64,000 bases of DNA from an uncultured Candidatus Saccharibacteria bacterium (GCA_964348495.1 CAYGCZ010000001.1:7951-71950); one strand, 5' to 3'; shown: positions 5,693-55,795, counted from the stretch's first letter. The notes: generated from the letters alone by a model not told the origin. A program made the numbers and translations.

Positions 5693-5724
5693 GCCGACAG
5701 CTGGCAGTCATCTGTTCATCACCT

Positions 5725-9381
<3,657 letters not shown>

Positions 9382-18981: not shown

Positions 18982-19746
18982 CTATCGCTTCAGCGCTTCT
19001 TCTATAAAGCGCTTCATGGTTTCGTAGGACTGGGCACCGGCGGGGAGGGGAAGGACGGAGCCGTCTTTGAGAATGATGAAGCCGGTCGGGGTGGCACGGA
19101 CGCCGGCGTCGATGCCGCCTTCGAGCTGTTCTGATATGAGATCGGCGTAACGCTCGCTTGTAAGGCAGGTGTTGAATGCGGTGAGGACGGCGCCTTTAAA
19201 GCCGATATTTTGCGCGATCACGGGAAGTTGGTCGAGCTCCAGGCGGTTGTTGGAGGGAGTAATGGCGAAGATGCCATCTATGTACGACCAGAATGCGTCG
19301 CGGCCGCCGACCTCTGCGGCACACTCTGCGGCGCGGGCCTCAACGCGCGCCTTGGGGTGGATGGTATCAAGCGGGAAGTGGCGGTAGACCCACGCCACCT
19401 TGCCGTCATTGCCGTAGGTCTTGTAGACGTTGAGCATCGTCTCGTGGAAGACCTTGCAGAAGGGGCACTCCAAGTCGGAGTATTCAACGACGGTGAGAGC
19501 GGCCTTCGGGTCGCCGCGGAGATGATCATTGGCCGATAGAGGTGGGAGATTTTGCGCCGTCTCTATGGCTCCCTCGTCGGCGGAGGGTTGCGCTGCGCTG
19601 TGCGGGGATTTGGTGATGAGGATGGCACCGGCGATGATGAGGCCGGCGATGATGATCGCCGTGGGCGTTGTGAGGGTAAACCCTGCGCGCTTGTGAGAAG
19701 TTTCGTGTTCCATATGGTTCCATTGTATCTGAAAGAGGGTTTCCAC
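18982..19746 (-). CDS. DsbA-family thiol:disulfide oxidoreductase, membrane-anchored
   Basis: N-terminal TM segment, CPFC active-site motif, thioredoxin-fold context ...VYRHFPLDTIHP... Confidence 0.8.
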   Translation of the reverse strand: METLFQIQWNHMEHETSHKRAGFTLTTPTAIIIAGLIIAGAILITKSPHSAAQPSADEGAIETAQNLPPLSANDHLRGDPKAALTVVEYSDLECPFCKVFHETMLNVYKTYGNDGKVAWVYRHFPLDTIHPKARVEARAAECAAEVGGRDAFWSYIDGIFAITPSNNRLELDQLPVIAQNIGFKGAVLTAFNTCLTSERYADLISEQLEGGIDAGVRATPTGFIILKDGSVLPLPAGAQSYETMKRFIEEALKR

Positions 19747-22080: not shown

Positions 22081-22500
22081 ATGCCTGTTTCTCAATCACC
22101 ATCTGTCGAAAAAAAGGAAGTGATCGGACCATTGTCACGCATTTTACTCGTAGAGGACGACATGTTCATCGCCCGCGCCTACGTTAGCGGTCTTGGTCAA
22201 AACGGTTTTGAGATACTCCATGCCGCTTCCGGAGAGCAAGCACTCCTCACGCTCGGAAAAGAAAAGATCGATCTGATCTTGCTCGATATCATCATGCCCG
22301 CCATGAACGGTTTTGAGGTATTGAAGGCCATCAAAGAGAACAGGGCGACCAAAAACATCCCCGTCATCGTCCTCTCCAATCTCGGACAAGAGTCCGATAT
22401 CCAAAAAAGTCGCGAACTTGGCGCGATCGACCACCTCGTAAAAGTCGATTATTCAATCGCCGATATTGCACAGAAGTTGCGCTCCCACCTTCATGCATGA
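22081..22500 (+). CDS. stand-alone response-regulator receiver domain (CheY-like)
   Basis: LLVEDD...DLILLDIIMP...VIVLSN...K. Its stop overlaps the pilB start (ATGA). Confidence 0.85.
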   Translation: MPVSQSPSVEKKEVIGPLSRILLVEDDMFIARAYVSGLGQNGFEILHAASGEQALLTLGKEKIDLILLDIIMPAMNGFEVLKAIKENRATKNIPVIVLSNLGQESDIQKSRELGAIDHLVKVDYSIADIAQKLRSHLHA

Positions 22501-24278
22501 CCAACGTCGTTACCATTGAACAACTGCGTGCCGCGTTGGTTCCTCCGGGGCATGTGAGCGAGGAAGATTTTGCGCGTGTCGTTATGAAGGCGCAGAAGCG
22601 CAATGTGCCGGTGGAGTATGTCCTTGTGGAGGATGATCTGGTGAGCGACGAAAACCTCGGCCGACTGATAGCCGAGACGATCGGCATACGTTTTGCCAAT
22701 CTGACCTACGAGAAGGTGGATCGCTCGGTCTTTTTTGCGATGCCGGAGATGGTGGCACGCGTGGCGCATGCCGCCGCAATCAATATGACTCCGGGAGGGG
22801 TGCGCGTCGCCATGCTCTATCCGACCGACATCGAGACGCTTCATCTTTTTGAAAAGCGCTATGGGACGTCGGTTATACCTCATTATGCTACGGCGCGCGC
22901 GCTTGAACGCACCTTTTCACTCTACAGCGGCGACTTGCAAAAGACCTTTGACGAGCTCTTGGCGCGCTTGCGCGATATCAATCTTACGCGCATAGAACGC
23001 GATCGTATGACCGTTGAGATGGTGGACGTGCTCTTGCATTATGGCTACCAAAACAACGCCTCCGACATCCACATCGAGCCCTTCACCAACGATTTACGGG
23101 TGCGTTTCCGCATTGACGGCATCATGCACGACGTACTCACCATTCCCAAAAACAGTCACGAGCTCATCCTGACACGCCTCAAGATACTCGCCAAGATGCG
23201 TACCGACGAGCACCGAGCCGCACAGGACGGCAAATTTCGTTTCTTCGTGCGCGACAGCACTGCCTTTGAAGGGCGCAATCTTATCGCAAGCGGCCATGTC
23301 GCGGCACGCGCAAAAACAGCCCTGCGCAAGAGTTCGGCGGATATCGTCGACGTGCGTGTCTCTATCGTCCCTATCACGGAGGGGGAAAACGTTGTGATGC
23401 GTCTTCTCTCCGCCAAAGGCCGCGAATACGGCCTCTCGACCATCGGCCTTTCACCCCAAGACAGCGCACGCATCCAGCGCGCCATCAAAAAGCCGCATGG
23501 TATGATCCTCGCCGTCGGTCCGACCGGATCGGGAAAGACGACGAGTATGTACGCCGTCTTGAAGCTTCTCAACACGCGAGAGGTACACATCGCCTCGATT
23601 GAGGATCCGGTCGAGTACGCGGTTGAGGGTGTGAGCCAGATCCAAGTAAACCCGCAGACAAATCTCACCTTCGCAAAAGGTCTCCGCGCGATTGTGCGTC
23701 AGGACCCGGATATCATCTTTGTCGGTGAAATTCGCGATGAAGAAACGGCGGGCATCGCAGTGAACTCAGCCATGACGGGACACCTTGTCCTCTCAACCCT
23801 CCACACCAACGATGCGGCGACGACGCTGCCCCGCCTCCTCGACATGGATATCGAGCCCTTCCTCATCGCCTCGACGATCAACGTCATTGTGGCCCAGCGT
23901 CTTGTCCGCAAGATCTGCGCAGGGTGTCGCGAGTCGGTTGTCTTGAACGACGAAGAGAAGCTCGCGCTCCAGTATGAGCCCGAGATCAAAAAGCTTTTCA
24001 TCAAGCTGGGCCAAAAGAACATCGACACTCTGCTTGTCTACAAGGGCAAGGGATGTAAGGCCTGCAACGATACGGGCTATGTCGGACGTATCGGGATCTT
24101 CGAAATCATGGAGGCCGATGAGGAGATCAAACGCCTCATCATCACCCGCGCATCAAGCGGTGAGATTGAAGAGACGGCCAAGAAGGCCGGTATGAGCACG
24201 ATGATGGAAGACGGATTACGCAAGGTCTTTGAGGGCATCACAACTTTGGAGGAGATCTTGCGCGTTACGAAGGCATAA
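22497..24278 (+). CDS. pilB: type IV pilus assembly ATPase PilB/GspE family
   Basis: Walker A GPTGSGKTT, Asp and His boxes, and the tetracysteine C-terminus CAGC...CKAC. Confidence 0.92.
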   Translation: MTNVVTIEQLRAALVPPGHVSEEDFARVVMKAQKRNVPVEYVLVEDDLVSDENLGRLIAETIGIRFANLTYEKVDRSVFFAMPEMVARVAHAAAINMTPGGVRVAMLYPTDIETLHLFEKRYGTSVIPHYATARALERTFSLYSGDLQKTFDELLARLRDINLTRIERDRMTVEMVDVLLHYGYQNNASDIHIEPFTNDLRVRFRIDGIMHDVLTIPKNSHELILTRLKILAKMRTDEHRAAQDGKFRFFVRDSTAFEGRNLIASGHVAARAKTALRKSSADIVDVRVSIVPITEGENVVMRLLSAKGREYGLSTIGLSPQDSARIQRAIKKPHGMILAVGPTGSGKTTSMYAVLKLLNTREVHIASIEDPVEYAVEGVSQIQVNPQTNLTFAKGLRAIVRQDPDIIFVGEIRDEETAGIAVNSAMTGHLVLSTLHTNDAATTLPRLLDMDIEPFLIASTINVIVAQRLVRKICAGCRESVVLNDEEKLALQYEPEIKKLFIKLGQKNIDTLLVYKGKGCKACNDTGYVGRIGIFEIMEADEEIKRLIITRASSGEIEETAKKAGMSTMMEDGLRKVFEGITTLEEILRVTKA

Positions 24279-24311
24279 TTACTTTTCGCCGCGAGAGCGG
24301 CATAGCATCAT

Positions 24312-25433
24312 ATGGCACTCGACAGTTCAAGCATGAGACAAGAGCGAGCTACGGCTCCGCAAGGCGGCCTGCTCCTTGCGCGCGTCTTGTATGGCAAGGT
24401 TACCCTCACCCAAAAGGCGCTTTTCGCCAAACATATGGCGGTCATGTTGCGTTCGGGTCTCACTATCACTGAGGCGTTACACACCGCGATCGACACCTCA
24501 AGCGGGCGTTTGAAGCAGATCATGAAAGAGGTCGAGCAATCGGTACAAGCGGGCAAGCCGCTCTCAACCGCACTTGCCGGTTATCAGGACGTCTTCTCAG
24601 ACCTCTTCGTCAATGTCGTCTATGTCGGCGAGGCCTCCGGAACTCTCGTGGAGAATCTTGAGAATCTCGCCGTCCAGATCGAGAAAGAGCGTGATCTGCG
24701 CGCAAAATTGCTTGGTGCCATGATCTACCCGATCATTGTCTTTTCGGCGACTTTCATTTTGAGCTTGGTGCTCGCCTTCGTCGTCCTGCCAAAATTGATT
24801 CCGCTCTTTCAGGGGCTGAAAGTTCAGTTGCCTCTCTCCACGCGTATTTTAATCGCGATGGCGGGCTTCATAGAGAATCATGTTTTTCTGATCGTCGGTT
24901 CGGTCTTTGGTACCCTTGCCGGTCTCACCTTTTTGGTCCGTCAACGCTTTGTGCGCCCGATTACGCACTATGTTTTGCTCAAGATACCGCTTATCGGCCC
25001 GGTGGTGCACGATGTCAATCTGGTGCTCTTTGCTCGCACCTTGCGCATGCTTCTTACAAGCGGTCTCAACATTGATGAGACGATTGAGATCGCCCACAAC
25101 GCCGTCAGCAACCACTATTATCAGCAGGCATTGCGCGATGTGAGCCGCGCTATCCGTACCGGTACCAAACTCTCCCAGAATCTTGCCCGTTACAACGACC
25201 TCTTTCCGCCGCTCGTCTCGCGCATGGTGCGCGTGGGTGAGGAGTCGGGACAGCTTGAGGAGACGCTTTCGTATCTTGAGAGTTTCTATGAAAAGGAGGT
25301 GGATAATTCCACCAAGACACTCTCCATTGCCATCGAGCCCGTCTTGCTCCTTGTCTTGGGCCTCGGCGTCGGCTTCTTGGCACTCTCGATTATCACGCCG
25401 ATCTACAGCATTACGGGTAGTATCGGCAAATAA
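24312..25433 (+). CDS. pilC: type IV pilus / T2SS platform protein PilC/GspF family
   Basis: Two GspF-like repeats with 3 TM segments. Confidence 0.88.
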   Translation: MALDSSSMRQERATAPQGGLLLARVLYGKVTLTQKALFAKHMAVMLRSGLTITEALHTAIDTSSGRLKQIMKEVEQSVQAGKPLSTALAGYQDVFSDLFVNVVYVGEASGTLVENLENLAVQIEKERDLRAKLLGAMIYPIIVFSATFILSLVLAFVVLPKLIPLFQGLKVQLPLSTRILIAMAGFIENHVFLIVGSVFGTLAGLTFLVRQRFVRPITHYVLLKIPLIGPVVHDVNLVLFARTLRMLLTSGLNIDETIEIAHNAVSNHYYQQALRDVSRAIRTGTKLSQNLARYNDLFPPLVSRMVRVGEESGQLEETLSYLESFYEKEVDNSTKTLSIAIEPVLLLVLGLGVGFLALSIITPIYSITGSIGK

Positions 25434-25440
25434 TAGCTCT

Positions 25441-25989
25441 ATGTATCAGATATCATATATCATATATCAGATATCGAAACAGGCGGGCCTGCCCGCCGCG
25501 CCTGCGCTCGGTCGTTCCTTGCGCTCCAGGGCGGGTTTTACCTTCATTGAACTCCTGATCGTGATCGGCGTTTCTCTGATTGTCTACGGCATGTCGCTTT
25601 CAGTATCGGTCCGCACTCAACCATCAATACAGGTAAGCGAATCGGCGGCGCATATCGTTCAGACGATTCGCATCGCCAAGAACGCAAGCCATGCGCGCTT
25701 TCACGGCGCGGCGCACGGGGTTTTCTTCGAAAATAATGCGACGAACAATGATCGCTATATCGCCTATCAAGGTGCCACCTACGCAACGCGCGATACGGCC
25801 TACGACAGTATCACCACACTGGATGCAGGGTTGTCGCTCTCAAGTACGTTCCCGTCGAGCGGCGATATTAATTTTTCAAAAGGGCTTGGCGTGCCGAGTG
25901 CCACGGGGACGGTATCGCTTATGCATGCTGTAACAGGTGAGACGAAGACCATAACCGTCAACGGCATTGGCGCGGTCAACAGTGATTAA
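25441..25989 (+). CDS. pseudopilin or minor pilin with prepilin-type N-terminal cleavage/methylation motif
   Basis: SRAG|FTFIELLIVIGVSLIVYG. The start was chosen at ATG 25441, within the longer ORF 25183..25989 that overlaps pilC. Confidence 0.7.
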   Translation: MYQISYIIYQISKQAGLPAAPALGRSLRSRAGFTFIELLIVIGVSLIVYGMSLSVSVRTQPSIQVSESAAHIVQTIRIAKNASHARFHGAAHGVFFENNATNNDRYIAYQGATYATRDTAYDSITTLDAGLSLSSTFPSSGDINFSKGLGVPSATGTVSLMHAVTGETKTITVNGIGAVNSD

Positions 25990-25990
25990 C

Positions 25991-28900
25991 ATGCAGAAGT
26001 ATACGCTTCGAAGAGGTCAGACGTTGCTGGAGGCGATCATCGCGATTGCGCTTTTCGCTTTGTTGGTGAGTGCGATGGTCTCAATCGGTACGGGTGGATT
26101 TGTCGGTATTGATCGCGGCGGTGATCAGACGGAGGCCGAGTCGCTCGCCCAGGAGGGATTGGAGGCGGTACGCGCCATTCGCGACGACGCATGGCGCCGG
26201 CTCGCCTTCTCCACGAGCTCGGTCGCCGTCTCCGCCGGCGGATGGATCTTCAGCGGGGAGGGGACGACGGAAACGGTCGGCGACTTCACCCGCACCATCT
26301 CTCTGCGCGATGTCTGCCGCGACGGGTCAAACAACCTTACCGCCTGCCCGGGATCCTTTGTTGATCTGCATACCAAAGAGATCGTCGTAACGGTAACCTG
26401 GCAGACCAGTACCGGTATTGTGAACAGTATAGAGCGTTCAATGTACCTCTCCAATTGGCAATCGCGCGATTGGACGCAGACCGATTGGTCGGGCGGCTCC
26501 GGCTTCACGACATGGTCTGATGCTACGCCCACCAGGTACAACCTCAACGACGGCGGCATCGACCATGCGACGGCGGGGCAATTCTCTATCGCGTCCGTTC
26601 CGTCGGGAGGGAGTATCGGCCGATGGATCCCCGGTGGCGGTACATCGGTTACCCATACTTCAGCATCACACTTTAATGCAGGGACGTTCGCGAGTACGAC
26701 AGTATCCGGCAGTGGTAATGCGGCTCTTGTTCAGCTTGCCACGCAAGTCCAATGGTCAACGTTTATCCCCACCTCCGAGAGCGGCGATCCGCGCGGATTG
26801 AACGACCTTGAATTCGGCTCCGACCTCGTCGTCTCCGAGTTCGGCTATGCTGTCGGTAAGAATGGAACCATCATGAAGTGGGATGGTGCATCATGGGGAG
26901 CACAGACGAGCGGCACTACTCAGGAGTTGCACGGCGTTTCTATCATGGACAGCGCGGACGTATGGGCTGTGGGCGATAACGGTACGATCATGCATTGGAA
27001 CGGTTTCAGCTGGTCGAGCGTGCAGTCGGCGTCGGTCAAGAGCCTGCTGGATGTCTTCTTGACTTCGGAGACTGATGGATGGATCGTCGGTGCAGGTGGC
27101 GATATTCAGCGGTGGAATGGCGCCATCTGGACAGCATTTATCTCACCGACGAGCCGCAACATGTACAGCTTGGATTTTGTGACCGTCAACGATGGCTGGT
27201 CCGTCGGTGCCAACGGCGAGATTATGCGCTGGAACGGTACGAGCTGGAGCGTTGTCGTCTCTCCCACGACTCAAGCACTCAACGACGTGCACCTCTACGA
27301 TGCTTCCAACGGATGGGCGGTAGGCAACAATGGCGCGATTCTGCGCTGGAATGGCACCATCTGGACATCGCAGACCGCCCCCGACAATACTGAGCTTTTC
27401 GGTGTCTATGCCGTCTCTGCGACGGAGGCGTGGGCGACGGGCAATAGCGGTACGCTCATTCACACCACTAATAGTGGCGCTACCTGGTCGCTCGTATCGG
27501 TCGCTACGAGCGACCCTCTGCGCGATATTTATATGATCAGTGCCTCCAATGGCCAGTTCGTCGGCGGTTCTCCGACCGTCCCCACCATTTTCCAATACGA
27601 CGGGGTGAATTGGACCGATATTTCAGGCGTCCTCAACAACGACGCCATTTACGACATATCAATGATCAGTTCAAGTGATGGTTGGGCTTCCGGCAACGCA
27701 GGACTCATTCTTCATTGGAATGGCAACGACTGGCTCTCGGTAACATCACCGACCAACAGCGACCTCCAGACTATCGACATGGTCGATGCTTCCAACGGTT
27801 TTGCCGCCGGACAAAATGGCAAGATTGTTCATTACAACGGCTCATCGTGGTCGTTGCAGACCTCGGGGGTGAGCGCAACCCTCTTGGGTTCATCTGCAGT
27901 AAGCGCCTCGACGGCATGGATCGTCGGCAACTCGGGCACGATCCTCAAGACGATAAATAGCGGCTCGACATGGTCTGCTCAGACGAGCCCTGTCGGTTCA
28001 AGTTTGCGGAGCGTCTATGCGGTGGATACCTCCAACGCATGGGCAGTCGGTGCGGCCGGCGTTATCTTGAGTACGAGCAATGGCGGTACGACATGGACAC
28101 AACGGACGAGCGGGACAACAAACACTCTCAACGGTGTGCATTTCGTGGACACATCCAACGGATGGGCGGTAGGTAATAACGGTACAATACGCAAGACCAA
28201 TAATGCCGGCGTTACTTGGACGACCGTAACGAGCGGCACGACCAACGACCTGCTTGCGGTGTACTTTACGAGCATCTCCGACGGTTGGGCAGTCGGTGTC
28301 AACAGCGTTCTTTTGCACTGGAACGGCGTCTCGTGGACGACGGTAACGTCGCCCGTTTCCGAAGATATGCATACGGTCGCGATGGTCAACGGCTCCGATG
28401 TCTGGGCCGCGGGTCAATCATCGGTCTTCATTCACTATGGCTTGTCATATTATCTTTCGGGTACCTTCACCTCCTCCGTTATAGACAGCGGGGATGTCTC
28501 GGCGAGCTGGGACTTCATCAAGTGGACGGAGAATATCAACGCCGGATGGACGGATATCACCGTGGATACGCGGACGGGTAATACCTCCACACCGGATGCT
28601 ACTTGGTCCGCCTTCGTCGGCGGGTATACCGATCCGCTTGGCGATCCGATCATCTCACCCGACAGCCGCTACATCCAATATCGTGTCAGTTTTACTACCA
28701 TTGATAGTCAACAGACATCAACCTTGAGCGACCTCACTATCGACTATAACAACCCCACAACACAAGATCTCTACGGCGTGGAGATGCTCTCGGCATCGTC
28801 GGGCTTCGCGAGTGGCGGCGCACGGACGGTCTTTGAATACGACGGCGTCGCGTGGAGCGAGCAAACGAGCGGCGCGGCGGTCATCATGCGCGATGTTGAT

Positions 28901-29929
28901 TTTGTTACCAGTTCTACGGGATGGGCCGTAGGTGACGGGGGTGTTATTATAAAAACGACCAACGGCGGTTCAAGCTTCAGCACGCAGACGAGCGGTACGG
29001 CGCTCAATTTGAACGGCGTCGCGTTTGTCGACGCAAACAACGGCTGGGCTGTCGGCAATACAGGGGCGATCCGCGCGACAGTAAACGGCGGCAGTACGTG
29101 GTCGGGGCAGACGAGTGGCACGACAGCGAACTTGCAAGACGTTTTCTTTGTCAGTACGACTGAGGGCTGGGCCGTTGGCGCGGCGGGTACGATCTTGCAT
29201 ACGGTAAACGGCGGCAGTACGTGGTCTTCCCAGACGAGCGGCACGACCAATGGATTGAACGACCTCTTTTTTACCGGCAGTACGACCGGATGGACCGTCG
29301 GCAACGGTGGCGTAATACGTCAAACGACCAACGGCGGCTCGACGTGGGTAGCACGCACCTCGCAGACGACCAACAATCTCTACGGTCTCGGCTTCTTCGG
29401 TACCAACAACGGCTGGGCGGTCGGCGCGGCGGGGACGATCATGCGCTATGCCGGTATTGACTGGGCACTCTTCACCTCGCCGGTAACGGTAGATCTCCAA
29501 GATGTATCATTCAGTACGGCGACCGATGGCTGGGGTGTCGGTGCAGGGGGTCTTTTCATTCACTTCACCATCAATGAAGTGGCGACACCCTACCTCACCT
29601 CCGGCGTGCTTACCTCATCGGGCTTTGACATGGGCGATACCCAAGCGGCTGTCAATACGCTCGACTGGGATGAGCTTATTCCCTCGTGTTCGCCCGTGTG
29701 CACCGTGCGCTTTCAGCTCTCCACCGCTCCCGACAGCGGGGGAGTACCCGGGACATTTAGCTCGTGGTACGGAGCGGCCGGTATCAATACCTACTTCACC
29801 CATGCGACGAGTGGGGTAGCGGTGCCGACCTCCCTGCCGACAAACCGCTGGGTGCGCTATCGCACACTCCTCGATAGCGACGGCAGTGCGACGCCGACCG
29901 TCTATGAGATGCGGCTTAATTATCAATGA
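25991..29929 (+). CDS. giant pilin-like protein: prepilin-type N-terminus followed by ~20 Ycf48/BNR-like beta-propeller repeats (putative pilus tip adhesin)
   Basis: RRG|QTLLEAIIAIALFALLV. Repeats of the form TxNGGxTWxxQTSGTTxxLxxVxFVDxxNGWAVGxxGTI are numerous. Confidence 0.75.
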   Translation: MQKYTLRRGQTLLEAIIAIALFALLVSAMVSIGTGGFVGIDRGGDQTEAESLAQEGLEAVRAIRDDAWRRLAFSTSSVAVSAGGWIFSGEGTTETVGDFTRTISLRDVCRDGSNNLTACPGSFVDLHTKEIVVTVTWQTSTGIVNSIERSMYLSNWQSRDWTQTDWSGGSGFTTWSDATPTRYNLNDGGIDHATAGQFSIASVPSGGSIGRWIPGGGTSVTHTSASHFNAGTFASTTVSGSGNAALVQLATQVQWSTFIPTSESGDPRGLNDLEFGSDLVVSEFGYAVGKNGTIMKWDGASWGAQTSGTTQELHGVSIMDSADVWAVGDNGTIMHWNGFSWSSVQSASVKSLLDVFLTSETDGWIVGAGGDIQRWNGAIWTAFISPTSRNMYSLDFVTVNDGWSVGANGEIMRWNGTSWSVVVSPTTQALNDVHLYDASNGWAVGNNGAILRWNGTIWTSQTAPDNTELFGVYAVSATEAWATGNSGTLIHTTNSGATWSLVSVATSDPLRDIYMISASNGQFVGGSPTVPTIFQYDGVNWTDISGVLNNDAIYDISMISSSDGWASGNAGLILHWNGNDWLSVTSPTNSDLQTIDMVDASNGFAAGQNGKIVHYNGSSWSLQTSGVSATLLGSSAVSASTAWIVGNSGTILKTINSGSTWSAQTSPVGSSLRSVYAVDTSNAWAVGAAGVILSTSNGGTTWTQRTSGTTNTLNGVHFVDTSNGWAVGNNGTIRKTNNAGVTWTTVTSGTTNDLLAVYFTSISDGWAVGVNSVLLHWNGVSWTTVTSPVSEDMHTVAMVNGSDVWAAGQSSVFIHYGLSYYLSGTFTSSVIDSGDVSASWDFIKWTENINAGWTDITVDTRTGNTSTPDATWSAFVGGYTDPLGDPIISPDSRYIQYRVSFTTIDSQQTSTLSDLTIDYNNPTTQDLYGVEMLSASSGFASGGARTVFEYDGVAWSEQTSGAAVIMRDVDFVTSSTGWAVGDGGVIIKTTNGGSSFSTQTSGTALNLNGVAFVDANNGWAVGNTGAIRATVNGGSTWSGQTSGTTANLQDVFFVSTTEGWAVGAAGTILHTVNGGSTWSSQTSGTTNGLNDLFFTGSTTGWTVGNGGVIRQTTNGGSTWVARTSQTTNNLYGLGFFGTNNGWAVGAAGTIMRYAGIDWALFTSPVTVDLQDVSFSTATDGWGVGAGGLFIHFTINEVATPYLTSGVLTSSGFDMGDTQAAVNTLDWDELIPSCSPVCTVRFQLSTAPDSGGVPGTFSSWYGAAGINTYFTHATSGVAVPTSLPTNRWVRYRTLLDSDGSATPTVYEMRLNYQ

Positions 29930-29994
29930 ATATGAAGTATCCAGTAAGAAGCATAGAGCGCGGATCAGTCGTATATCGCCGTGCGTGCGCCGAT

Positions 29995-30495
29995 ATGCGG
30001 GGCGTAACGCTCATGGAGTTTCTCGTCTACATCGCCATCATAAGCGGCGTCGCTTTGGCATTCGTTACTTTTTCACTCGCGATCCTCAATACCAAGAGTA
30101 AGACGTATGTGGTCCAAGAAGTCTATGCCAACGAGCGTATCGCATTGGACATCATGACGCGCAAGATACGCGCGGCGACGAGCATCATGATCTCCTCCTC
30201 AACCTTCGACATCGATCCGGGGGTGTTGGTCTTCCATACCGATGCCTCCTCAACCGACCCCACGATCATCGACCTCTCGGCGGACAATGGCTCATTGCGC
30301 ATCACCGAAGGGACATCCTCGCCGGTCTTGATCACAAGCGACCAGGTCTATGTTACCAACCTGCAATTCACCAATCTGACCGCCTCCTCAACCTATGAGA
30401 ACGTACGCATAGAGCTGACCATGGCATATGCCTCGTCATCGCTGCTCACGACGGCACAGGTGAGCGCGCGCACGGCGGTCAGTCTGCGCAATTAA
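29995..30495 (+). CDS. pseudopilin or minor pilin
   Basis: MRG|VTLMEFLVYIAIISGVALAF prepilin-type motif. Confidence 0.65.
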   Translation: MRGVTLMEFLVYIAIISGVALAFVTFSLAILNTKSKTYVVQEVYANERIALDIMTRKIRAATSIMISSSTFDIDPGVLVFHTDASSTDPTIIDLSADNGSLRITEGTSSPVLITSDQVYVTNLQFTNLTASSTYENVRIELTMAYASSSLLTTAQVSARTAVSLRN

Positions 30496-30500
30496 TACGT

Positions 30501-30911
30501 ATGCATTCATCACGCTATCATCGCATCACATCGGGCTTCATGGCACTGCTCGCCGTCGTTATTATCGGCGCGGCGTCTCTGCTTGTGGTTTTGAACGCCT
30601 CCACACTCGGGCTGGGCGATCTTGATTTCGGGTATACCTCGCAAAAGGGTGCTGAAGCCCTCGCGCTCGCTGATGGATGCATGGAAGAAACCTTTCGCCG
30701 TATTCGGCTCTACCCGAGCTATGGGGTTGGATCAGGCACCATTACTTTGTCTCTTGCCTCCGGTTCTTGTACAATTGACGTAAGCGGCGTCAATCCGGCG
30801 CGCACCGTCGTCGTTACCGGCATCGTCGGTGAGTATCAGAAAAAATTGGAAGCCAATCTGACACTCTCCGGATCGACGATCACTCTCGTCTCGTGGAAGG
30901 AGCGCGAGTAA
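30501..30911 (+). CDS. pilus-associated PilX-like minor pilin (no Glu at +5)
   Basis: SGFMALLAVVIIGAASLLVVL hydrophobic N-terminus followed by a small beta-rich domain. Confidence 0.45.
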   Translation: MHSSRYHRITSGFMALLAVVIIGAASLLVVLNASTLGLGDLDFGYTSQKGAEALALADGCMEETFRRIRLYPSYGVGSGTITLSLASGSCTIDVSGVNPARTVVVTGIVGEYQKKLEANLTLSGSTITLVSWKERE

Positions 30912-30944
30912 TCGCGCACAGCACTCCAACCCCCCACTTCGCTC

Positions 30945-32138
30945 ATGAGTCCTCTTGGCACCATCTCACAACTCTTCTCGCAACCCGGTACAAGCGGTGT
31001 TGGTCTTGAAATATCCGACACATCGGTCAAGATCGCTTCATTGCGCATCAATCGCAGTCGTTTCGCCGTCTCGGGGGTGGGGGGTGCTCCTTTGGAGCTC
31101 GGCACCGTCGTGAAAGGCAAGATTAAAGATAGGGAGCGTTTGGGTCAAGCACTTCGCCTCGCCGCTTCATCGGCGCAACCTACGCCAGTCGCCTTGCAGT
31201 CGCTCATTTTCGCGGTGCCCGAATATCTCGTCTATACCTATTCGTTCTTCCTGACGCGCCAGGCATTCGAAGATACCGTCAAGAGCAAGAAGCTTGAGAC
31301 ATTGATCCGCAATGCCGCAGAGCGTTATATTCCCATCGGGTCAAAAGATCTGCTTATTACGCATCGTATAACGCGTCGCAGGGATCAGACCGTGCAGATC
31401 TTCGTCGTCGGTACGGAACGCAGCGCCCTTCTTGAGTGGGATGCATTCTTTAAAAGTATCGGCATCGTATCGGTCATTTTCGATATTCCCGCTTTTGCAA
31501 CTTTTCGGGTGCTTTTTGCCGAATCTCAAAAGAACGGCGCGTGTATCATCGACATCGGCGATACGGTAACCACCGTTTTTCTTTTCAATGCCGACGGACT
31601 GGTGCATTCGTATCTCCTTGTTCGTGGTGGCGAAACCATCACGACAGCACTTATGTCGAAACTTTCGATATCGCATAATGACGCCGAAGAGATAAAGCGT
31701 ATCGTCGGGCTCTCCGATCCTGCACATGCCGCGTATCCGATACTTGTCGAGCAGGTACAACCGATTCTTGCTGATGTCGCGCGAACCCTCCTCTTTTTCC
31801 AAAAGAATTCCGGCCTCTCCATACCCGAGGCAATATCCATCGGCGGAACGAGTGTCATGCCCGGCTATGCGGAGTATGCATCGTCGGCGGTCGGTATTCC
31901 GGTACGCATCGGGGGTATTCCTCATGAATCGGACGCAAAAGCGGGCGGTATTGACGGGTATATGCAGGTGATCGGAATGGCTATGCGTGCTCTGGACAAA
32001 CGCTGGGAGCGAACCGATCCGGCGTTCACTTCCGCTCAATTGATCGTCAAAGAAGATGAACATAGCGAGGGCGCAGCATCGACTGAAACTCCGGAATCGA
32101 CGTTTGTCCGTTTGAGGAAGCAAATCTTCAAGATATGA
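30945..32138 (+). CDS. pilM: type IV pilus assembly protein PilM (actin-like ATPase fold)
   Basis: VGLEISDTSVKIASL... N-terminal actin-fold motif and the expected size. No pilN or pilO follows. Confidence 0.6.
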   Translation: MSPLGTISQLFSQPGTSGVGLEISDTSVKIASLRINRSRFAVSGVGGAPLELGTVVKGKIKDRERLGQALRLAASSAQPTPVALQSLIFAVPEYLVYTYSFFLTRQAFEDTVKSKKLETLIRNAAERYIPIGSKDLLITHRITRRRDQTVQIFVVGTERSALLEWDAFFKSIGIVSVIFDIPAFATFRVLFAESQKNGACIIDIGDTVTTVFLFNADGLVHSYLLVRGGETITTALMSKLSISHNDAEEIKRIVGLSDPAHAAYPILVEQVQPILADVARTLLFFQKNSGLSIPEAISIGGTSVMPGYAEYASSAVGIPVRIGGIPHESDAKAGGIDGYMQVIGMAMRALDKRWERTDPAFTSAQLIVKEDEHSEGAASTETPESTFVRLRKQIFKI

Positions 32139-32188
32139 TATAGGTATGCACGGCGTCTCGTCTGTGCTGTGAGTATTGGAGTATTGCA

Positions 32189-32719
32189 ATGAGTTTTCAC
32201 TATCTTCAAAAATCGACAAGCTCAAAACTGCATACGCAGAAAGGTTTCACCTTGCTGGAGCTCTTGCTCGTGGTGGCAATCATCGCCATTCTCGCCTCGG
32301 TTATCTTTGTTGTTCTCGATCCGCCCACTCGTTTCAAGAATACACGCGATTCAGCGCGATTTACCGATGTAAGAGCTATAAGCAACGCCATTAAGCTTGA
32401 TCAGTTGGACAACGGCGGCGATTATCTCCATGCGATAGCTTCCATAACCGCCGATACCCCGTACATTATAAGCAATGCAACCACTACCGCAGGATGTATT
32501 GTAACCTGCGATGTAACGATCACCGCCGGCGACCATTGCGTAAATCTGACCGGTTTGGTTACTTCAGGCCATCTTGGTCAGATACCGATAAGCCCCGAAG
32601 GTACGGGGACGTGGACTTCAGCCGTAACCGGATACTACGTCCAGCGTAACACCAACGGCTCCATCTCGGTGGGCGCCTGTGAGTCAGAGAATATTTCAAC
32701 GATTGTTACTATCCAGTAA
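32189..32719 (+). CDS. type IV pilin (major pilin candidate 1)
   Basis: KG|FTLLELLLVVAIIAILASV class III signal with C-terminal Cys pair. Confidence 0.8.
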   Translation: MSFHYLQKSTSSKLHTQKGFTLLELLLVVAIIAILASVIFVVLDPPTRFKNTRDSARFTDVRAISNAIKLDQLDNGGDYLHAIASITADTPYIISNATTTAGCIVTCDVTITAGDHCVNLTGLVTSGHLGQIPISPEGTGTWTSAVTGYYVQRNTNGSISVGACESENISTIVTIQ

Positions 32720-32862
32720 TCCACATGTTTCCCGCGCATGCTCGTGGAAGTGCTCTCTCAGGTCTAGTATACTGAAAGCAGTCATGCTGGGGGTGAGCAT
32801 GTATCTCCCCGTCTTTCGTGTATAGGCCCGACGCGCATGAGTTTAATCATCTAGCAGTATTT

Positions 32863-33369
32863 ATGGAACACAAGCAGTACCGCACTAAACGAGGTTTTAC
32901 CCTCATTGAACTCCTGATCGTCATCGCGATTATCGCCATTCTTGCGGCCGTCGCCTTCGTCGCTCTCGATCCGCTCACGCGTTTTCGCGATGCACGCGAC
33001 TCTGCGCGATGGGCAGATATCACCGCGATCATCAACGCCATAAAAATCGATCAAGTCGATCATCGCGGTCAGTACATCTACAGCATCGCCAACGCAACCA
33101 CGAGCTGGACATTCCTTATTTCCGCCGCGACAACCACTTCAGGGTGCAATGTTACCTGTGACCAGGCAATCGCCACCTCCAGTTCGTGCCTCAACCTAAA
33201 CGATCTCGTAACGCGCGGATATCTTGGAGAACTGCCCGTCAGTCCTGACGGCGACCAGACATGGACTTCCACGCTCACCGGGTATTACATTCAAAAAAAT
33301 GCAACCGGCAACATCAAGATTGGATCTTGTGAGTCGGAAAATTCGAGCAGTGTCTCCGTCATACACTAG
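32863..33369 (+). CDS. type IV pilin paralog 2
   Basis: RG|FTLIELLIVIAIIAILAAV. Similar domain to 32189..32719, including DSARWADITAI and SCESENSS. Confidence 0.8.
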   Translation: MEHKQYRTKRGFTLIELLIVIAIIAILAAVAFVALDPLTRFRDARDSARWADITAIINAIKIDQVDHRGQYIYSIANATTSWTFLISAATTTSGCNVTCDQAIATSSSCLNLNDLVTRGYLGELPVSPDGDQTWTSTLTGYYIQKNATGNIKIGSCESENSSSVSVIH

Positions 33370-33459
33370 CAGTGTATTCAACATTAAGCCCCTCTGCCAA
33401 AAATCCGCACGAGTGTGCGGATTTTTTGAAGAGCATGCGACGTTTGCTATACTGTCTCT

Positions 33460-34008
33460 ATGCCGAACGAAGAAGAACATACGCTTGAACATGTCGTGCG
33501 GGAGGCATCTCACGGACAGCAGAGGGATGTCGGGGCGGATTTTCGGCGTCGAACACGCCTTTTTGTCGGTGTCATCCTGTTCATCATTATGGTATGTATC
33601 CTCTCGGTGAACCCGCTTCGCAAACTGCGCGAGGGACGCGATTCAGCTCGATGGGTTGATGTGACGGCACTTGTGAATGCCGTGCAGATCGATCAGGTCG
33701 AGCATCGTGGTGCATATTTGGAACCTATTGGTGCAATCGAAAATGGCGTGCCGCATATGATCATTCAAGGTGATGAAGCATCGGGTTGCGCCATGCACAC
33801 ATGCGACTCATTCATTCTTGCAGATGCCGCTTGTGTCAATTTGGAGGGATTGGTACGAGGTGGCTATTTTGCTTCATTGCCGATAAGTCCCGGCGACGGA
33901 TGGTCCAAGGAAGCGACCGGCTATTATTTGATCAAGAATATGGCGGGTACCATTACCATCGGCGCATGTGAATCGGAAGTGGGCGATGAGATTGTTATTA
34001 CCAAATGA
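33460..34008 (+). CDS. pilin paralog 3 with degenerate prepilin signal (possible pseudo-pilin or decaying copy)
   Basis: Conserved body GRDSARWVDVTALVNAVQIDQVEHRG...GACESE, but the N-terminus RTRLFVGVILFIIMVCILS lacks the G-F-T-L-x-E motif. Confidence 0.5.
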   Translation: MPNEEEHTLEHVVREASHGQQRDVGADFRRRTRLFVGVILFIIMVCILSVNPLRKLREGRDSARWVDVTALVNAVQIDQVEHRGAYLEPIGAIENGVPHMIIQGDEASGCAMHTCDSFILADAACVNLEGLVRGGYFASLPISPGDGWSKEATGYYLIKNMAGTITIGACESEVGDEIVITK

Positions 34009-34149: not shown

Positions 34150-34446
34150 ATGGATACACAAAAACGCCAGAAGTTCCAAGGGAATTGGACATGCAGCGGC
34201 TGCGGTGCCGCTATTACAGAGCTTCCGTTCGAACCCCGCAATACGGACAACCTTATGTGCTACGATTGCCACGGCAAGCGTTTAGGCGCAGAGCGTGGTG
34301 ATCGTCCGGCACGTCGGAATGATCAGACGTTCGAGGGTAATTGGAATTGCAGCTCATGCGGCGCATCAATCAACAAATTGCCTTTCCAGCCCCGCGATAC
34401 CAGCAACCTCAAGTGTCTCGGTTGCTTCAAGCAGAATCGCGGCTAG
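34150..34446 (+). CDS. tandem zinc-ribbon protein (2 x F-x-G-N-W-x-C-S-x-C-G-A-x-I-x-x-L-P-F-x-P-R-x-T-x-N-L-x-C-x-x-C)
   Basis: Internal duplication with four CxxC pairs. Unknown function. Confidence 0.5.
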   Translation: MDTQKRQKFQGNWTCSGCGAAITELPFEPRNTDNLMCYDCHGKRLGAERGDRPARRNDQTFEGNWNCSSCGASINKLPFQPRDTSNLKCLGCFKQNRG

Positions 34447-38657: not shown

Positions 38658-39395
38658 TTGATTTTTTTACAAATTTCGTATACACTTGCTCGTATGAGCA
38701 TGTATATACGAAAAATTAAAGAACTGCGTACAGAAAAAGGTCTGAGTCAAGCACAGGTTGCGGGGGCCATTGGCGTATCACGCCCAACTTACACCGCCAT
38801 TGAGGCAGGCAAACAAAAACTTGATCTTGATGAGGCGCAGAAGCTCGCCAGTCTCTTGGGTATTGATGTTTCAATGCTCGTCTCAGGTACTGTTCCCGAC
38901 ATGGAAAAGTACAAACAGATGATCCTTGCCTACCTGCGTATGGATCTCTCATCAAAAAAAGATGGTAAGGTTCCCAAGACAAAACTGGCAAAGCTCCTCT
39001 ATCTAGCTGACTTCGCATGGTTCTACGAGCATTTGGAAAGTATGAGTGGTATGCAGTATCGCAAAATTAATTATGGCCCGGTTCCCGATCTCTTTTTTCG
39101 CGCGCTTGATGAGATGGAGGAGGGGGGTAAGATCATTGTCGATCGAAAGCCAGATGATAACGGTCGTCCGATGTTTTTGATCAGTGAGGCGGATAGTAAT
39201 AGGAATGAACAAACCCGCCTCCTTTCCAAAGAGGAACAGAAGCTCATGATCACTATCGCCAAAAAGTGGAAAGATAAAAAAACAATCGATATCGTTAACT
39301 TTACGCACAACCAGTTACCCTACGCGCTATGCAGGGGGGATGAGTTGATACCGTATGAGCTGATCACGCAAGAGGATCCTGATAAGGTGTATTGA
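38658..39395 (+). CDS. HTH (XRE-family) fused to Panacea/DUF4065 (SocA-like) antitoxin domain
   Basis: HTH LSQAQVAGAIGVSRPTYTAIEAGK. DUF4065-like KLAKLLYLADFAWFYEH...YRKINYGPVPD. A more likely start is ATG 38694 or 38700. The region is AT-rich. Confidence 0.7.
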   Translation: MIFLQISYTLARMSMYIRKIKELRTEKGLSQAQVAGAIGVSRPTYTAIEAGKQKLDLDEAQKLASLLGIDVSMLVSGTVPDMEKYKQMILAYLRMDLSSKKDGKVPKTKLAKLLYLADFAWFYEHLESMSGMQYRKINYGPVPDLFFRALDEMEEGGKIIVDRKPDDNGRPMFLISEADSNRNEQTRLLSKEEQKLMITIAKKWKDKKTIDIVNFTHNQLPYALCRGDELIPYELITQEDPDKVY

Positions 39396-39799
39396 TTATG
39401 GAAGGGAATTATTCGGTGCGGATTGAACATTTTGCAGAGGGTCATTTTATCAAGAGCTTTCGCAAAAAATATCATGCGGCATGGGAGGTGACATGGCGCG
39501 CCATTGATGCACAGTTGGCTCGTATTGACGCGTTGTTGGAGACGGAAAAAGCAGATCACATCGTCGGTGATGATGCGATAAAGATTATAAAAACACAATT
39601 CAAAATCGCCGGTACGCAAGAATCGACCAAAAGTTCAGGTAATCGTTGTATTGTGGCATGGCACACAGATGAACGATATGTGGTTGTGTTGTTGGTGTAT
39701 GGAAAGACGGATTTAAGCGGAAAACATGAGACGGCAGAATGGCAAGGAATCGTGAAAAAGAATTATCCTCAGTATAGGCGACTGTTTAACGGGTGCTAA
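39392..39799 (+). CDS. unknown 135-aa protein translationally coupled to the Panacea gene (candidate toxin)
   Basis: ATGA overlap with the upstream gene. No confident family; the C-terminal beta-rich segment CIVAWHTDERYVVVLLVYGKTD is faintly RelE/ParE-like. Confidence 0.4.
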   Translation: MIMEGNYSVRIEHFAEGHFIKSFRKKYHAAWEVTWRAIDAQLARIDALLETEKADHIVGDDAIKIIKTQFKIAGTQESTKSSGNRCIVAWHTDERYVVVLLVYGKTDLSGKHETAEWQGIVKKNYPQYRRLFNGC

Positions 39800-44534: not shown

Positions 44535-46199
44535 TCAAACAAGACCGCGCACCCCATCTTTTGCCTTCATGCCGGAAAGGGGAATGGAGATGAAAAAGAC
44601 CGTGCCGCGATGTTCGGTCGATTCGAACCAAATACGCCCACCGGATTGTTCCATGATCGCTTTGACGATATAGAGCCCGAGGCCCGACCCGTCCGGATCG
44701 ATCAATCGCGCGTTGTCGGCGCGAAACATCTTGGTAAATATCTTGCCTTGTTGTGCAAGAGGGATGCCATGCCCGGTGTCGCTCACTTGTATAATAAGTG
44801 AGGTATCTTCTCGTCGCGTTTCAACGGAGATCGAGCCGCCGGCATTGGTGTATTTGATCGCGTTAGAAAGGAGATTTTGGATCACGGCACGCACAAGTTG
44901 ATGATCCAGAAGGACCTCCGGTATCACCCCGTAGGACTTTGTCAGTGTCAGATGTTTATTCTCCATGATGCCGGCAACCTCGCGTAAGGTCTCTTCGATA
45001 AGTTCGTTGACTTGAAGCGGTTTGGGAACGATGGCGAGCGTGCCCAGCTCAATATGCATCGCATTCAACATCGCATTGACAAGGTGTAATAATTGGCGGT
45101 TGCTTGTGGTGATGCGCGAAAGTCCCTCTACGACAGGTTGAGGCAGGACACTGCCCGGATATTGCTCCAAGAGCATCGAACTGTATCCTCCGATGATGGT
45201 AATGGGCGTGCGGAGTTGGTGGGTGGCAAGCGCAATAAACTCTTCGCGCGCTTTTTTGAGTTCATATTCTTTGGAGATGTCGCGAAAGACGATAATGACT
45301 CCCATGAGTCTGCCGGTAGGGTTGAAGATGGGTGCCGCACTGTCGCCAAGGGGGATCTCCACGCCCGACTTGGTGGTAAGCAGGGTGTTGTTATTCATGT
45401 AGGTTACCCGCCTCAAGTCCATCGCTTCTTTGATAAACCCCATGTTCTCCGCGCGGTCTTCGGCGCGTATCAACTTCATGATATTGCGGAACGGTTTACC
45501 AAGCACCTCGTCCTTATCCCATCCGGTAATGCGCGTCGCACTGCGGTTCCAGACGGTGATCGTCCACTCGGGATTGATGACGACCACGCCGTCGCCGATA
45601 CTTTCAATGATCTGGTTTAAGTTGTGAAACTCGCGGTCGCGCAAGGTCGTCATGCGACGAACGGTCTCAGTCGCACCTCTCAGGAGGACATAGATGTTCT
45701 GCAAGGTCTCTTGATCGAACGATCCTTCATCGGGGGTGGAGAGGTTGATGAGTACAGCAAGTGTTCCGGGTATGATCAGGGGAACATTGACATGTGAACG
45801 AGGGGATGCTTCGAGCGCAAGGGCGGTAGTGCCGGTTGTGCGTATATCAAGACGGAAATCGCTCTTCAGCCATTGCTGAAGGATGGTTTCGCGCACGCTT
45901 GGCAGGGTTGAAAGACCCAGAAAGAGATCTTCTTTGATTGTTGCTATATACACTTCTCCAATCGTGTCAGTAGCGGGAACGCGGATGTAGAGTAAGTCGG
46001 CGGGGATGGAGGGATCAAGCGGCGCTATGGCATAACTGACGATAATGCGCGGGAAAAGTTTTTGAATCGCGGTCGTCACATGTTCCATCACCTCAGTCAT
46101 ATCAAGACTGCCGCTCAAGGCCTGGTAGAGGTTTTTAATCGCTTCAAGTTCGGCAACTTTGCGTTCAAGTTCAAGGGATGATCTGGTGATCGTGTTCAT
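44535..46199 (-). CDS. cytoplasmic sensor histidine kinase (GAF-like/PAS + HisKA + HATPase)
   Basis: H-box ATHQLRTPITIIGGY, G-boxes DTGHGIP and GSGLGL, and a PAS segment with WNRSATRITGW. Confidence 0.85.
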   Translation of the reverse strand: MNTITRSSLELERKVAELEAIKNLYQALSGSLDMTEVMEHVTTAIQKLFPRIIVSYAIAPLDPSIPADLLYIRVPATDTIGEVYIATIKEDLFLGLSTLPSVRETILQQWLKSDFRLDIRTTGTTALALEASPRSHVNVPLIIPGTLAVLINLSTPDEGSFDQETLQNIYVLLRGATETVRRMTTLRDREFHNLNQIIESIGDGVVVINPEWTITVWNRSATRITGWDKDEVLGKPFRNIMKLIRAEDRAENMGFIKEAMDLRRVTYMNNNTLLTTKSGVEIPLGDSAAPIFNPTGRLMGVIIVFRDISKEYELKKAREEFIALATHQLRTPITIIGGYSSMLLEQYPGSVLPQPVVEGLSRITTSNRQLLHLVNAMLNAMHIELGTLAIVPKPLQVNELIEETLREVAGIMENKHLTLTKSYGVIPEVLLDHQLVRAVIQNLLSNAIKYTNAGGSISVETRREDTSLIIQVSDTGHGIPLAQQGKIFTKMFRADNARLIDPDGSGLGLYIVKAIMEQSGGRIWFESTEHRGTVFFISIPLSGMKAKDGVRGLV

Positions 46200-46259
46200 A
46201 GGAGTAGGCGGGTGTCGTCTTCATCTCTGTGTCCGTAGAGTGTTCAGCAGACGCATCGT

Positions 46260-46838
46260 TTACCGAGGGAGGACGATAACGCCACCGAGTGATTGTATTT
46301 CATGGATCAGCTCGGTATTGGCGGATGATTGTGAGACAAGTGAGACAATCCCCGTCGCTCCGTGTTTCCTCAGAAGAGCGTGAATTTTCTTGATGAATGT
46401 CTTGGTCAGATCAAGGGCATTGTAAAGCAGGATGACGGTGAGCGAGTCGAGGAAGACGAATTTTTTTGAAGGATCGCCCTCAAGATGCTTTTTGAGTTCG
46501 TCGAATATCTGATCCAGTGCGAGTGGTCCGGAGACGTAGGTAACGCCAGACGTTTGCGACTCTCCGATGCCATACATGTGGGCGATACCATCGATGAATT
46601 TTATAGAGCCGACCTGTACACCTTCGCGCGCCATCGTGGCGGCTATTTCGCCATAATCTTTGGTTAAGGTGATATAGATGCCCATGTAGCCGAGGTCTTG
46701 CATGGTCTTGACCGATAGGATGTTTTCGGAGGTCGCGTTCTCAAGCGTACCTTTCAATACAATAAGCGAACCGGTCGCCGCCTCAGTGAGATGTTGCGAA
46801 AGTTCACGCGAGGGAGGGGTATGCGTTTCTATGGTCAT
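46260..46838 (-). CDS. KaiC-like (RecA-superfamily) single-domain protein with degenerate Walker A
   Basis: GSLIVLKGT replaces GxxxxGKT. The rest aligns with a KaiC/RadA-type domain, e.g. FVFLDSLT. Confidence 0.45.
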   Translation of the reverse strand: MTIETHTPPSRELSQHLTEAATGSLIVLKGTLENATSENILSVKTMQDLGYMGIYITLTKDYGEIAATMAREGVQVGSIKFIDGIAHMYGIGESQTSGVTYVSGPLALDQIFDELKKHLEGDPSKKFVFLDSLTVILLYNALDLTKTFIKKIHALLRKHGATGIVSLVSQSSANTELIHEIQSLGGVIVLPR

Positions 46839-46883
46839 AAGGGTGATAATAAAACAGAAAGACGATGTTGGACGTAGTGGCGA

Positions 46884-53484: not shown

Positions 53485-53519
53485 AAAAAGCCCGCGATAC
53501 TCGCGGGCTTTTACTGGTG

Positions 53520-54071
53520 TCACCAATAGTAATTCAGGTTTGAAGGATCAAGGAAGTACTCGGGGTAGGCAGGATCTCCTCCGCATGAAGTATTTTCAGG
53601 AAGTCGACCCCTGTTGGCGATATTGGAGTAAGAAGTATTTCGCACTCCAAAATGAAGATGGGATCCTCCACTATGGTTGTTCACCTCTCCTATCTTTTGT
53701 CCCATGGATACCGATTGTCCGTAACTCACGACTGGTTTGATGTGATGATAGGTGCTCGTCCATGAACTGTGTGAGACGGTAACAAAGTTTCTCTCGTCAG
53801 AGGGATTGTTGTTGTATATCACAACAACCGCTATTGTCCCCGCGTATGCGCTTTCCACTTTTGTGCCGATGGGTGCGGATATATCAATCGCTGTATGAAG
53901 CTGGCGATTGCTTCCGCAATACTGGTTTTGCCAGTGTTCTCCCGGGACGGAGGTAATGATCCATGTATCGGGTAGGCCTGGCAACGGCCATTCTAGGGTG
54001 GGGATAGCCATACACACACTGCTGATAACGGCACATCCTAGAAACAAACATGCTTTTTTGAACAGTTTCAT
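53520..54071 (-). CDS. M23-family metallopeptidase (secreted), copy 1
   Basis: Signal peptide, HTAID (HxxxD) and GSHLHFGV (HxH) motifs. Confidence 0.75.
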   Translation of the reverse strand: MKLFKKACLFLGCAVISSVCMAIPTLEWPLPGLPDTWIITSVPGEHWQNQYCGSNRQLHTAIDISAPIGTKVESAYAGTIAVVVIYNNNPSDERNFVTVSHSSWTSTYHHIKPVVSYGQSVSMGQKIGEVNNHSGGSHLHFGVRNTSYSNIANRGRLPENTSCGGDPAYPEYFLDPSNLNYYW

Positions 54072-54248: not shown

Positions 54249-54254
54249 GGCGAT

Positions 54255-55783: not shown

Positions 55784-55795
55784 AACAGGCGCACA

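Follow-up and report, generated by a model that had tools for sequence, protein, structure and literature searches.

A putative tip-displayed modular minor pilin of 1,312 residues with beta-propeller cargo, encoded in a type IV pilus locus of an uncultured Patescibacterium

We analyzed a stretch of 64,000 nucleotides from an uncultured bacterium deposited as Candidatus Saccharibacteria (GCA_964348495.1, CAYGCZ010000001.1:7951-71950; hereafter the window, with positions counted from its first letter). Because the nearest named relatives of RpoB, at about 72% identity, belong to Paceibacterota, Parcubacteria, Lloydbacteria and Taylorbacteria, we assigned the window to a Patescibacterium of the class Paceibacteria. 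Eleven closely packed open reading frames (ORFs), all on the plus strand, fill positions 22081-34008, and our ORF calls match the coordinates given in a preliminary description made from the sequence alone. They form a type IV pilus (T4P) locus. Alongside a PilB-type ATPase, a PilC platform protein and PilM, the locus encodes a giant protein of 1,312 amino acids (25991-29929, +) that begins as a pilin (Pfam N_methyl, E = 1e-3) and continues into repeats of a beta-propeller family (PSII_BNR, E = 6e-50). This protein and the family to which it belongs are the subject of the present analysis.

The first 158 residues (25991-26464) comprise a prepilin signal and a GspI-like pilin module. The N-terminus reads MQKYTLRRG/QTLLEAIIAIALFALL (the slash marks the predicted cleavage site), with Gly at position -1 and Glu at position +5. 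The basic leader, Gly-1, hydrophobic stretch and Glu+5 that define a class III signal are all present (MQKYTLRRG/QTLLEAIIAIALFALLVSAMV, beginning MQKYTLRRG/QTLLE). The preliminary description had proposed such a signal, and its context proved to be conserved: across 39 aligned N-termini, position -1 is Gly in 35 relatives and Ala in 4, and position +5 is Glu in 35 and Asp in 3. Just after the predicted cleavage site, 22 of the 39 relatives have Gln and only 11 have Phe. In the window protein the corresponding residue (residue 10, window 26018-26020) is also Gln, which is unusual at position +1 of an N-methylated pilin.

Structure prediction gives residues 1-158 the lollipop shape of a pilin, with an alpha1 helix (residues 12-62), an antiparallel sheet and a Cys109-Cys119 pair, at a predicted local distance difference test score (pLDDT) above 90. 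The best structural matches of the predicted module are the tip pseudopilins GspI, EpsI and XcpV. The fold and these matches support the earlier suggestion that the protein is likely incorporated at a pilus tip, a location that we propose from the model. Both cysteines occur together in 22 of the 39 relatives, and the pair, like the PxCxPxC motif near the C-terminus, is compatible with an extracytoplasmic location. Two kilobases upstream of the operon (window 18982-19746, minus strand) lies a gene for a DsbA-like protein that has a thioredoxin fold and a membrane segment at its N-terminus and could make the conserved pilin disulfides. The pilin module is followed by a linker (residues 159-262; 26465-26776) with the motifs WxQTDWSGGSG and TDTDFxxGTFxxT, the second of which is duplicated in some relatives. 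The conserved columns of the N-terminal alignment around the linker are W156, W161, G169, G231 and T236.

For the repeats we used a hidden Markov model (HMM) of the blade, with six clear units as seed and iteration over the giant protein. It recognized 21 blades, each with an E-value between 1e-12 and 1e-22, of which 14 lie in residues 263-816 (26777-28438) and 7 in residues 922-1193 (28754-29569), the latter rich in Asp-box-like NGGxTW loops. This is far beyond chance, and the figure of about 20 Ycf48/BNR-type repeats reported earlier is borne out. The Pfam PSII_BNR match is distributed over 8 stretches of the protein, the best being residues 1005-1080. The preliminary description took everything after the pilin N-terminus to be repeats. 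Its account of the N-terminus and of the repeats holds, but it missed two beta-sandwiches, at residues 817-921 (28439-28753) and 1194-1312 (29570-29929, including the stop codon). The two segments are homologous to one another according to jackhmmer. The internal one is all-beta in the structural model described below, and the C-terminal one carries PxCxPxC, QYR and NY motifs. For the C-terminal sandwich we found no Pfam match recurring among family members at E ≤ 1 and no PDB sequence match at E ≤ 10.

Residues 263-1312 were modeled with AlphaFold2 from a 17-sequence alignment. The model (mean pLDDT 82) consists of regular four-stranded blades and beta-sandwich segments. The blades of residues 263-816 mostly have a pLDDT of 85-95, with a low-confidence break around residues 503-547 (model residues 241-285). 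We read this region as two tandem 7-bladed propellers split near the break; the blade counts (14 + 7) and the break are consistent with three predicted 7-bladed propellers in the whole protein. A Foldseek search with the 1,050-residue model retrieved tandem propellers at 8-14% identity, namely LRP4, Aip1, the GH74 xyloglucanases and the BT4663 sensor. These matches confirm the propeller fold class only, and they agree with the several propellers predicted in the preliminary description. Tandem Repeats Finder detected no DNA-level tandem repeat in the gene, which indicates that the repeats are old and diverged and did not arise from misassembly. An independent Logan contig (P0001) encodes an identical protein. 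Looked up by exact sequence, with either the ATG or the TTG start, the giant protein matched no contig, and the copy on P0001 is called from an internal TTG.

The giant gene is tightly embedded among minor pilin genes. Its ATG lies 1 nt past the stop codon of the pseudopilin gene upstream, and its own stop overlaps the start ATG of the gene in the GspJ position. The order of this cassette fits H-I-J-K with the giant gene second. The upstream gene (25441-25989; signal AG/FTFIE; N_methyl, E = 1.6e-4) has weak matches to GspH and ComGD, and its start is ambiguous (ATG at 25441 or TTG at 25519). The gene immediately downstream (29926-30495; MRG/VTLME) matches GspJ weakly (NCBIfam, E = 3.5e-3). It is followed, in the position of GspK, PilX or ComGG, by a gene for a 136-residue protein (30501-30911) that has a hydrophobic N-terminal segment (SG/FMALL) without Glu+5 and matches no family in Pfam or NCBIfam.

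The cassette is flanked by the assembly machinery and the pilins. Upstream lie a stand-alone CheY-like receiver of 139 residues (22081-22500; Response_reg, E = 8e-23), a PilB/GspE-family assembly ATPase of 593 residues (22497-24278; T2SSE, E = 4e-117) and a PilC/GspF platform protein of 373 residues (24312-25433; T2SSF, E = 3e-61; NCBIfam GspF, 265 bits). The N-terminus of the ATPase has a weak MshEN match in Pfam (E = 2e-5), and its NCBIfam scores are 481 bits for GspE and 477 bits for PilB, neither of which reaches the equivalog cut-off. Downstream lie PilM, with an actin-like ATPase fold (397 residues; 30945-32138; PilM_2, E = 2e-21; FtsA, E = 3e-11), a candidate major pilin of 176 residues (pilin 1; 32189-32719; KG/FTLLE; N_methyl, E = 5e-8) and its paralogue (pilin 2; 32818-33369; RG/FTLIE; N_methyl, E = 3e-10). 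Up to this point the gene order matches the preliminary description. The last gene (33460-34008), which had been counted as a third pilin, lacks a prepilin motif: aligned to pilins 1 and 2, it keeps the globular domain and the four cysteines and has lost the G/FTLxE motif with Gly-1 and Glu+5. It has no Pfam match. A similar 183-residue gene without N_methyl lies 3' of three pilins in a relative with 52% identity (L001, 13423-13974), and for this reason the degenerate copy may be under maintenance. Directly 3' of the pilin cluster, both the window (34150-34446, +) and L001 (14229-14507) encode a small protein that bears a pair of treble-clef zinc fingers (zf_Tbcl_2).

The Pfam search covered the window ORFs between about 11 and 62 kb, and ORFs 5' of 11 kb were judged from their translations. 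On this basis no prepilin peptidase (PilD, Peptidase_A24), PilT, PilN or PilO was found in the 64-kb window, in line with their reported absence from the locus itself. The secretin GspD was found neither in the window nor in the related loci examined, and GspC, GspL and GspM were likewise absent from the window. We therefore rejected a type II secretion system (T2SS), since GspD and GspC/L/M are absent from the window and PilM is there instead.

To place the giant protein among its relatives, we scanned GTDB with a profile of the N-terminal module built from an 8-sequence alignment. At least 106 stretches were confirmed to encode a relative, and among the matches listed we kept 79 distinct loci. 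They span Magasanikbacteria, Uhrbacteria, Ryanbacteria, Falkowbacteria, Buchananbacteria, Sungbacteria, Vogelbacteria, Campbellbacteria, Nomurabacteria, Berkelbacteria, Dojkabacteria, Microgenomates and Paceibacteria. The proteins of the window served to annotate 70 of the 79 loci; contig ends truncate many of these, so the resulting counts are lower bounds. A GspH-like gene lies immediately upstream of the large pilin in 61 of the 70 loci, and PilC at most two genes upstream in 58. On the other side, a GspJ-position gene follows immediately in 49 loci, a homologue of the 136-residue protein within two genes in 54, and PilM within four genes in 47. The order receiver, PilB, PilC, H, large GspI-like pilin, J, K, PilM, pilin recurs in about 70 GTDB species across Patescibacteria, and we saw the same gene order in three relatives found by exact sequence. 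The proteins in this slot are distant from the window protein (30-54% identity). That they keep the place between PilC and GspH-like genes on one side and GspJ-like and GspK-like genes on the other supports the link to pili claimed in the preliminary description, as opposed to a generic secreted BNR protein.

The receiver also recurs. In the window its stop codon and the pilB start codon overlap in ATGA, as described earlier, and a receiver lies immediately upstream of full-length PilB in 33 of 59 loci, which makes a regulatory link between the two plausible on genomic grounds. The only kinase in the window lies 20 kb from this orphan receiver. It is a PAS-HisKA-HATPase histidine kinase that adjoins a short KaiC-like/DUF7090 protein and a double-domain KaiC-like ATPase (44535-48587, minus strand), and together these may form a sensory module. 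In one of the three relatives found by exact sequence (L002), a PilT-like T2SSE ATPase of 365 residues, a HAMP histidine kinase and two receivers are encoded just upstream of pilB (991-2088 and 3136-6571). Retraction and two-component genes can thus belong to an extended locus, though they are absent from the window.

Searches with the full-length protein yielded one orthologue (52% identity) and dozens of Patescibacteria proteins that are about 970-2,100 residues long and roughly 30-39% identical to it. A few of them are annotated as prepilin-type N-terminal cleavage/methylation proteins. In eight of the database gene models (P0001, P0024, P0028, P0038, P0039, P0042, P0060 and P0098) the start codon is placed within alpha1 (for instance MLEAIIA.. 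or MEVLIAIAIF..). Such miscalls remove the prepilin leader and hide the pilin nature of the family. The GTDB representatives do not include the genome of the window, and the best of their listed matches to the N-terminal module has 53-54% identity. In a whole-library profile search this module retrieved 705 clusters at E ≤ 1e-30 and 4,930 at E ≤ 1e-10.

The family follows a recognizable architecture, in which the N-terminal module is followed by two to five units of about 7 blades and a sandwich. The window protein and three others differ in having 12-14 blades before the first sandwich. Ycf48-type blades are not general: four or more occur in only 23 of 70 large pilins, and the other cargo in relatives comprises Laminin_G_3 (a ConA-like lectin), LVIVD repeats, DUF4082 or nothing recognizable. 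The C-terminal sandwich, by contrast, ends 85 of the 94 top representatives of at least 550 residues whatever their cargo, while four or more blades are found in 22 of them. For instance, pairwise BLASTP aligned a 1,740-residue and a 1,625-residue protein to the window protein over the first ~200 residues (54% and 47% identity) and over the last ~115 residues (39% and 48%), with nothing between. Judged from sequence, conserved ends that enclose unrelated cargo, including ConA-like lectins, are the pattern expected of an adhesin carrier.

Taken together, we consider it probable that the giant protein is a modular core minor pilin of a monoderm-type T4P, displayed at the tip as an adhesin. It would be inserted via Sec, and a prepilin peptidase whose gene would lie elsewhere in the genome would cleave it after Gly9. 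It would then join the GspH-, GspJ- and GspK-position minor pilins in a priming complex on PilC, a role suggested by the class III signal, the GspI-like fold, the H-I-J-K position with its tight or overlapping junctions and the phylum-wide synteny. PilB would polymerize the two major pilins beneath this complex, which would end at the pilus tip. The flexible linker of about 100 residues would hold some 1,050 residues, that is, three propellers and two beta-sandwiches, outside the filament. The envelopes of these organisms are not known to have a secretin channel that would limit the size of such cargo. The propellers and sandwiches would bind a ligand on a host cell or a surface. We favor binding over catalysis because the cargo of relatives is often lectin-like, because modular pilins are adhesins (PMC8179133) and because of the role of PilX2 (PMC11623550). 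We infer the cleavage, the tip location, adhesion with its ligand and control by the receiver.

Several observations weigh against this interpretation. The N_methyl score of the giant protein is below the Pfam gathering threshold (19.0 versus 21.2 bits). A Foldseek search of the N-terminal model against the PDB gave nothing significant, and a profile search of the N-terminal alignment against PDB sequences gave only weak alpha1 matches (Geopilin, PilA, CFA/III pilin and TcpA, E = 0.01-2). The linker is modeled with low confidence (pLDDT 38-57). Neither a prepilin peptidase nor PilT was found in the window. GspK, and not GspI, forms the apex of the solved GspI-J-K complex, so a cargo of 115 kDa on an I-like subunit would not obviously sit at the extreme tip. 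The matches to propellers are generic, at the low identities given above, so they suggest neither a ligand nor an enzymatic activity. We infer the adhesive function, of this protein as of its family, from sequence. Finally, the pili may serve DNA uptake rather than attachment, as discussed for a Parcubacterium (PMC5220378).

In a first alternative, which we regard as unlikely, the locus would encode a Com-like competence pilus or a T2SS-like pseudopilus, and the head would be non-adhesive, serving to degrade glycans, remodel the wall or capture DNA or nutrients. The ATPase scores alike for GspE and PilB, PilC is closest to GspF, and the minor pilins resemble GspH, GspI and GspJ. DNA uptake has been proposed for Candidate Phyla Radiation (CPR) pili (PMC5220378). 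The Foldseek matches of the head include the GH74 two-propeller xyloglucanases and the glycan-sensing BT4663 double propeller, but GH74 shares only about 14% identity with it, which does not exceed the values for WD40 or LRP propellers, and we identified no catalytic motif in the head. The common lectin-type cargo of relatives (Laminin_G_3) likewise points to binding and not to catalysis. As for the machinery, ComGA and ComGB matches are much weaker than those to PilB and GspE, and the operon has PilM and two canonical pilins but no secretin, GspC, GspL or GspM.

A second alternative, which we think quite improbable, is that the protein is a bitopic cell-surface protein whose pilin-like N-terminus serves as an uncleaved anchor, so that the propellers would sit on the cell surface and not on a filament. 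It would fit with the absence of PilD from the window and with the report that PilX1 and PilX2 of TM7x have no predicted PilD signal (PMC11623550), and a cargo of 115 kDa might be poorly accommodated in a filament. A plain anchor, however, would need neither the strict conservation of Gly-1 and Glu+5, nor a GspI-like globular fold, nor a constant place in the minor pilin cassette with tight or overlapping junctions. Moreover, proteins of the size of PilY1 ride on pili in other bacteria. The third alternative, a generic secreted Ycf48/BNR-repeat protein that lies beside pilus genes by chance, is effectively refuted: many non-pilin Ycf48-repeat proteins (linked to the type IX secretion system, cytochromes or FN3) score high against the repeats, but they lack the N-terminal module, which retrieves its 705 clusters on its own and occupies the same operon slot wherever context was available.

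The interpretation as a modular tip pilin can be compared with known systems. In Streptococcus sanguinis, PilB and PilC, which bear a vWA and a lectin module, respectively, are modular pilins that act as tip-exposed adhesins (Raynaud et al. 2021, PMC8179133). The giant protein falls within the definition of modular pilins given there, with its pilin module and PSII_BNR propellers. Like the proteins of that survey, it has a linker that connects a small pilin module, equipped with a class III signal, to a bulky functional one, it is a minor pilin of a monoderm-type T4P operon, and we propose that it is tip-exposed and adhesive. The survey already included CPR proteins, and its "most extreme" modular pilin had 860 residues (PMC8179133). 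The giant protein differs in its cargo of about 1,050 residues, with three propellers and two sandwiches, and in its GspI-like pilin module. Its family also has a second conserved element not described there, the C-terminal sandwich that brackets the cargo.

Another Patescibacteria T4P minor pilin with a beta-propeller is PilX2 of Nanosynbacter lyticus TM7x, in which the propeller is C-terminal and 7-bladed. TM7x requires PilX2 to bind its host efficiently, though not to extrude filaments, and PilX2 was proposed to be a tip adhesin (Grossman et al. 2024, PMC11623550). Compared by description, PilX2 carries a single RCC1-type propeller and reportedly lacks a canonical PilD signal, whereas the giant protein has three Ycf48/BNR-type propellers, two sandwiches and the canonical Gly-1/Glu+5 signal. 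With GspI, EpsI, XcpV and PilV-type proteins the giant protein shares the second place in an H-I-J-K-ordered cassette and Glu+5. Canonical GspI, by contrast, has about 120 residues without an extension and belongs to diderm T2SS or T4aP with a secretin, and identity to it is only 8-12%. The giant protein is not a small single-domain member of the GspI/PilV class (about 100-130 residues), since only some 158 of its 1,312 residues form the pilin module.

In size (about 115 kDa), in its beta-propellers and in its proposed adhesion and association with minor pilins at the tip, the giant protein also resembles the PilY1/PilC adhesins of Pseudomonas and Neisseria. PilY1, which carries a Sec signal, is a non-pilin protein that docks onto the minor pilins. 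We rejected a PilY1/PilC-type adhesin because the PF05567 propeller was not detected in the giant protein, which is itself a pilin. With the photosystem II assembly factor Ycf48/HCF136 the protein shares the blade repeat family and the 7-bladed units. Orthology was rejected on the grounds of the NCBIfam score (167 bits against a cut-off of 326), the 21 blades, the pilin N-terminus and the non-photosynthetic organism; the two share the type of repeat and not the function.

Two further regions of the window stood out. At 38658-39799 (+), a protein with HTH_3 and SocA/Panacea domains is followed by an overlapping 135-residue ORF without a Pfam match, which looks like a PanA-type toxin-antitoxin pair. 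From about 52771 to 64000 the GC content falls from about 0.55 to 0.46, with a value of 0.36 in the final 2 kb. This region contains two tandem pairs of a small membrane protein and a small secreted protein (52771-54071 and 54231-55440), with Peptidase_M23 in one of the secreted proteins, and it may be an acquired island or a binning or assembly junction.

Patescibacteria account for a large part of bacterial diversity and, to our knowledge, every member in culture lives attached to other microbes. Their host recognition has been tested genetically in one case, TM7x, in which a propeller-bearing minor pilin aids host binding. Our results indicate that Paceibacteria and many sister lineages follow, as a rule, a related and far more elaborate design, in which up to about 1,500 residues of exchangeable cargo lie between the two conserved ends of a canonical GspI-like minor pilin. 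Two features go beyond the literature that we searched: the scale of the cargo (the whole window protein has 1,312 residues, and pilin-bearing relatives reach about 2,100), and the combination of a GspI-like handle with an uncharacterized C-terminal sandwich that brackets exchangeable cargo. More tentatively, the second gene of the minor pilin cassette could be a dedicated cargo carrier across Patescibacteria and the determinant of host or surface specificity of the epibiont pilus, akin to the receptor-binding proteins of phages; we hold this broader idea to be possible but doubtful. Its exchangeable middle would then consist of one to five propellers, ConA-like lectins, LVIVD or DUF4082 modules, or unknown folds, and the type of cargo would predict host range. 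If cargo does set specificity, these genes would offer a handle, readable from sequence, on the host range of uncultivated lineages.

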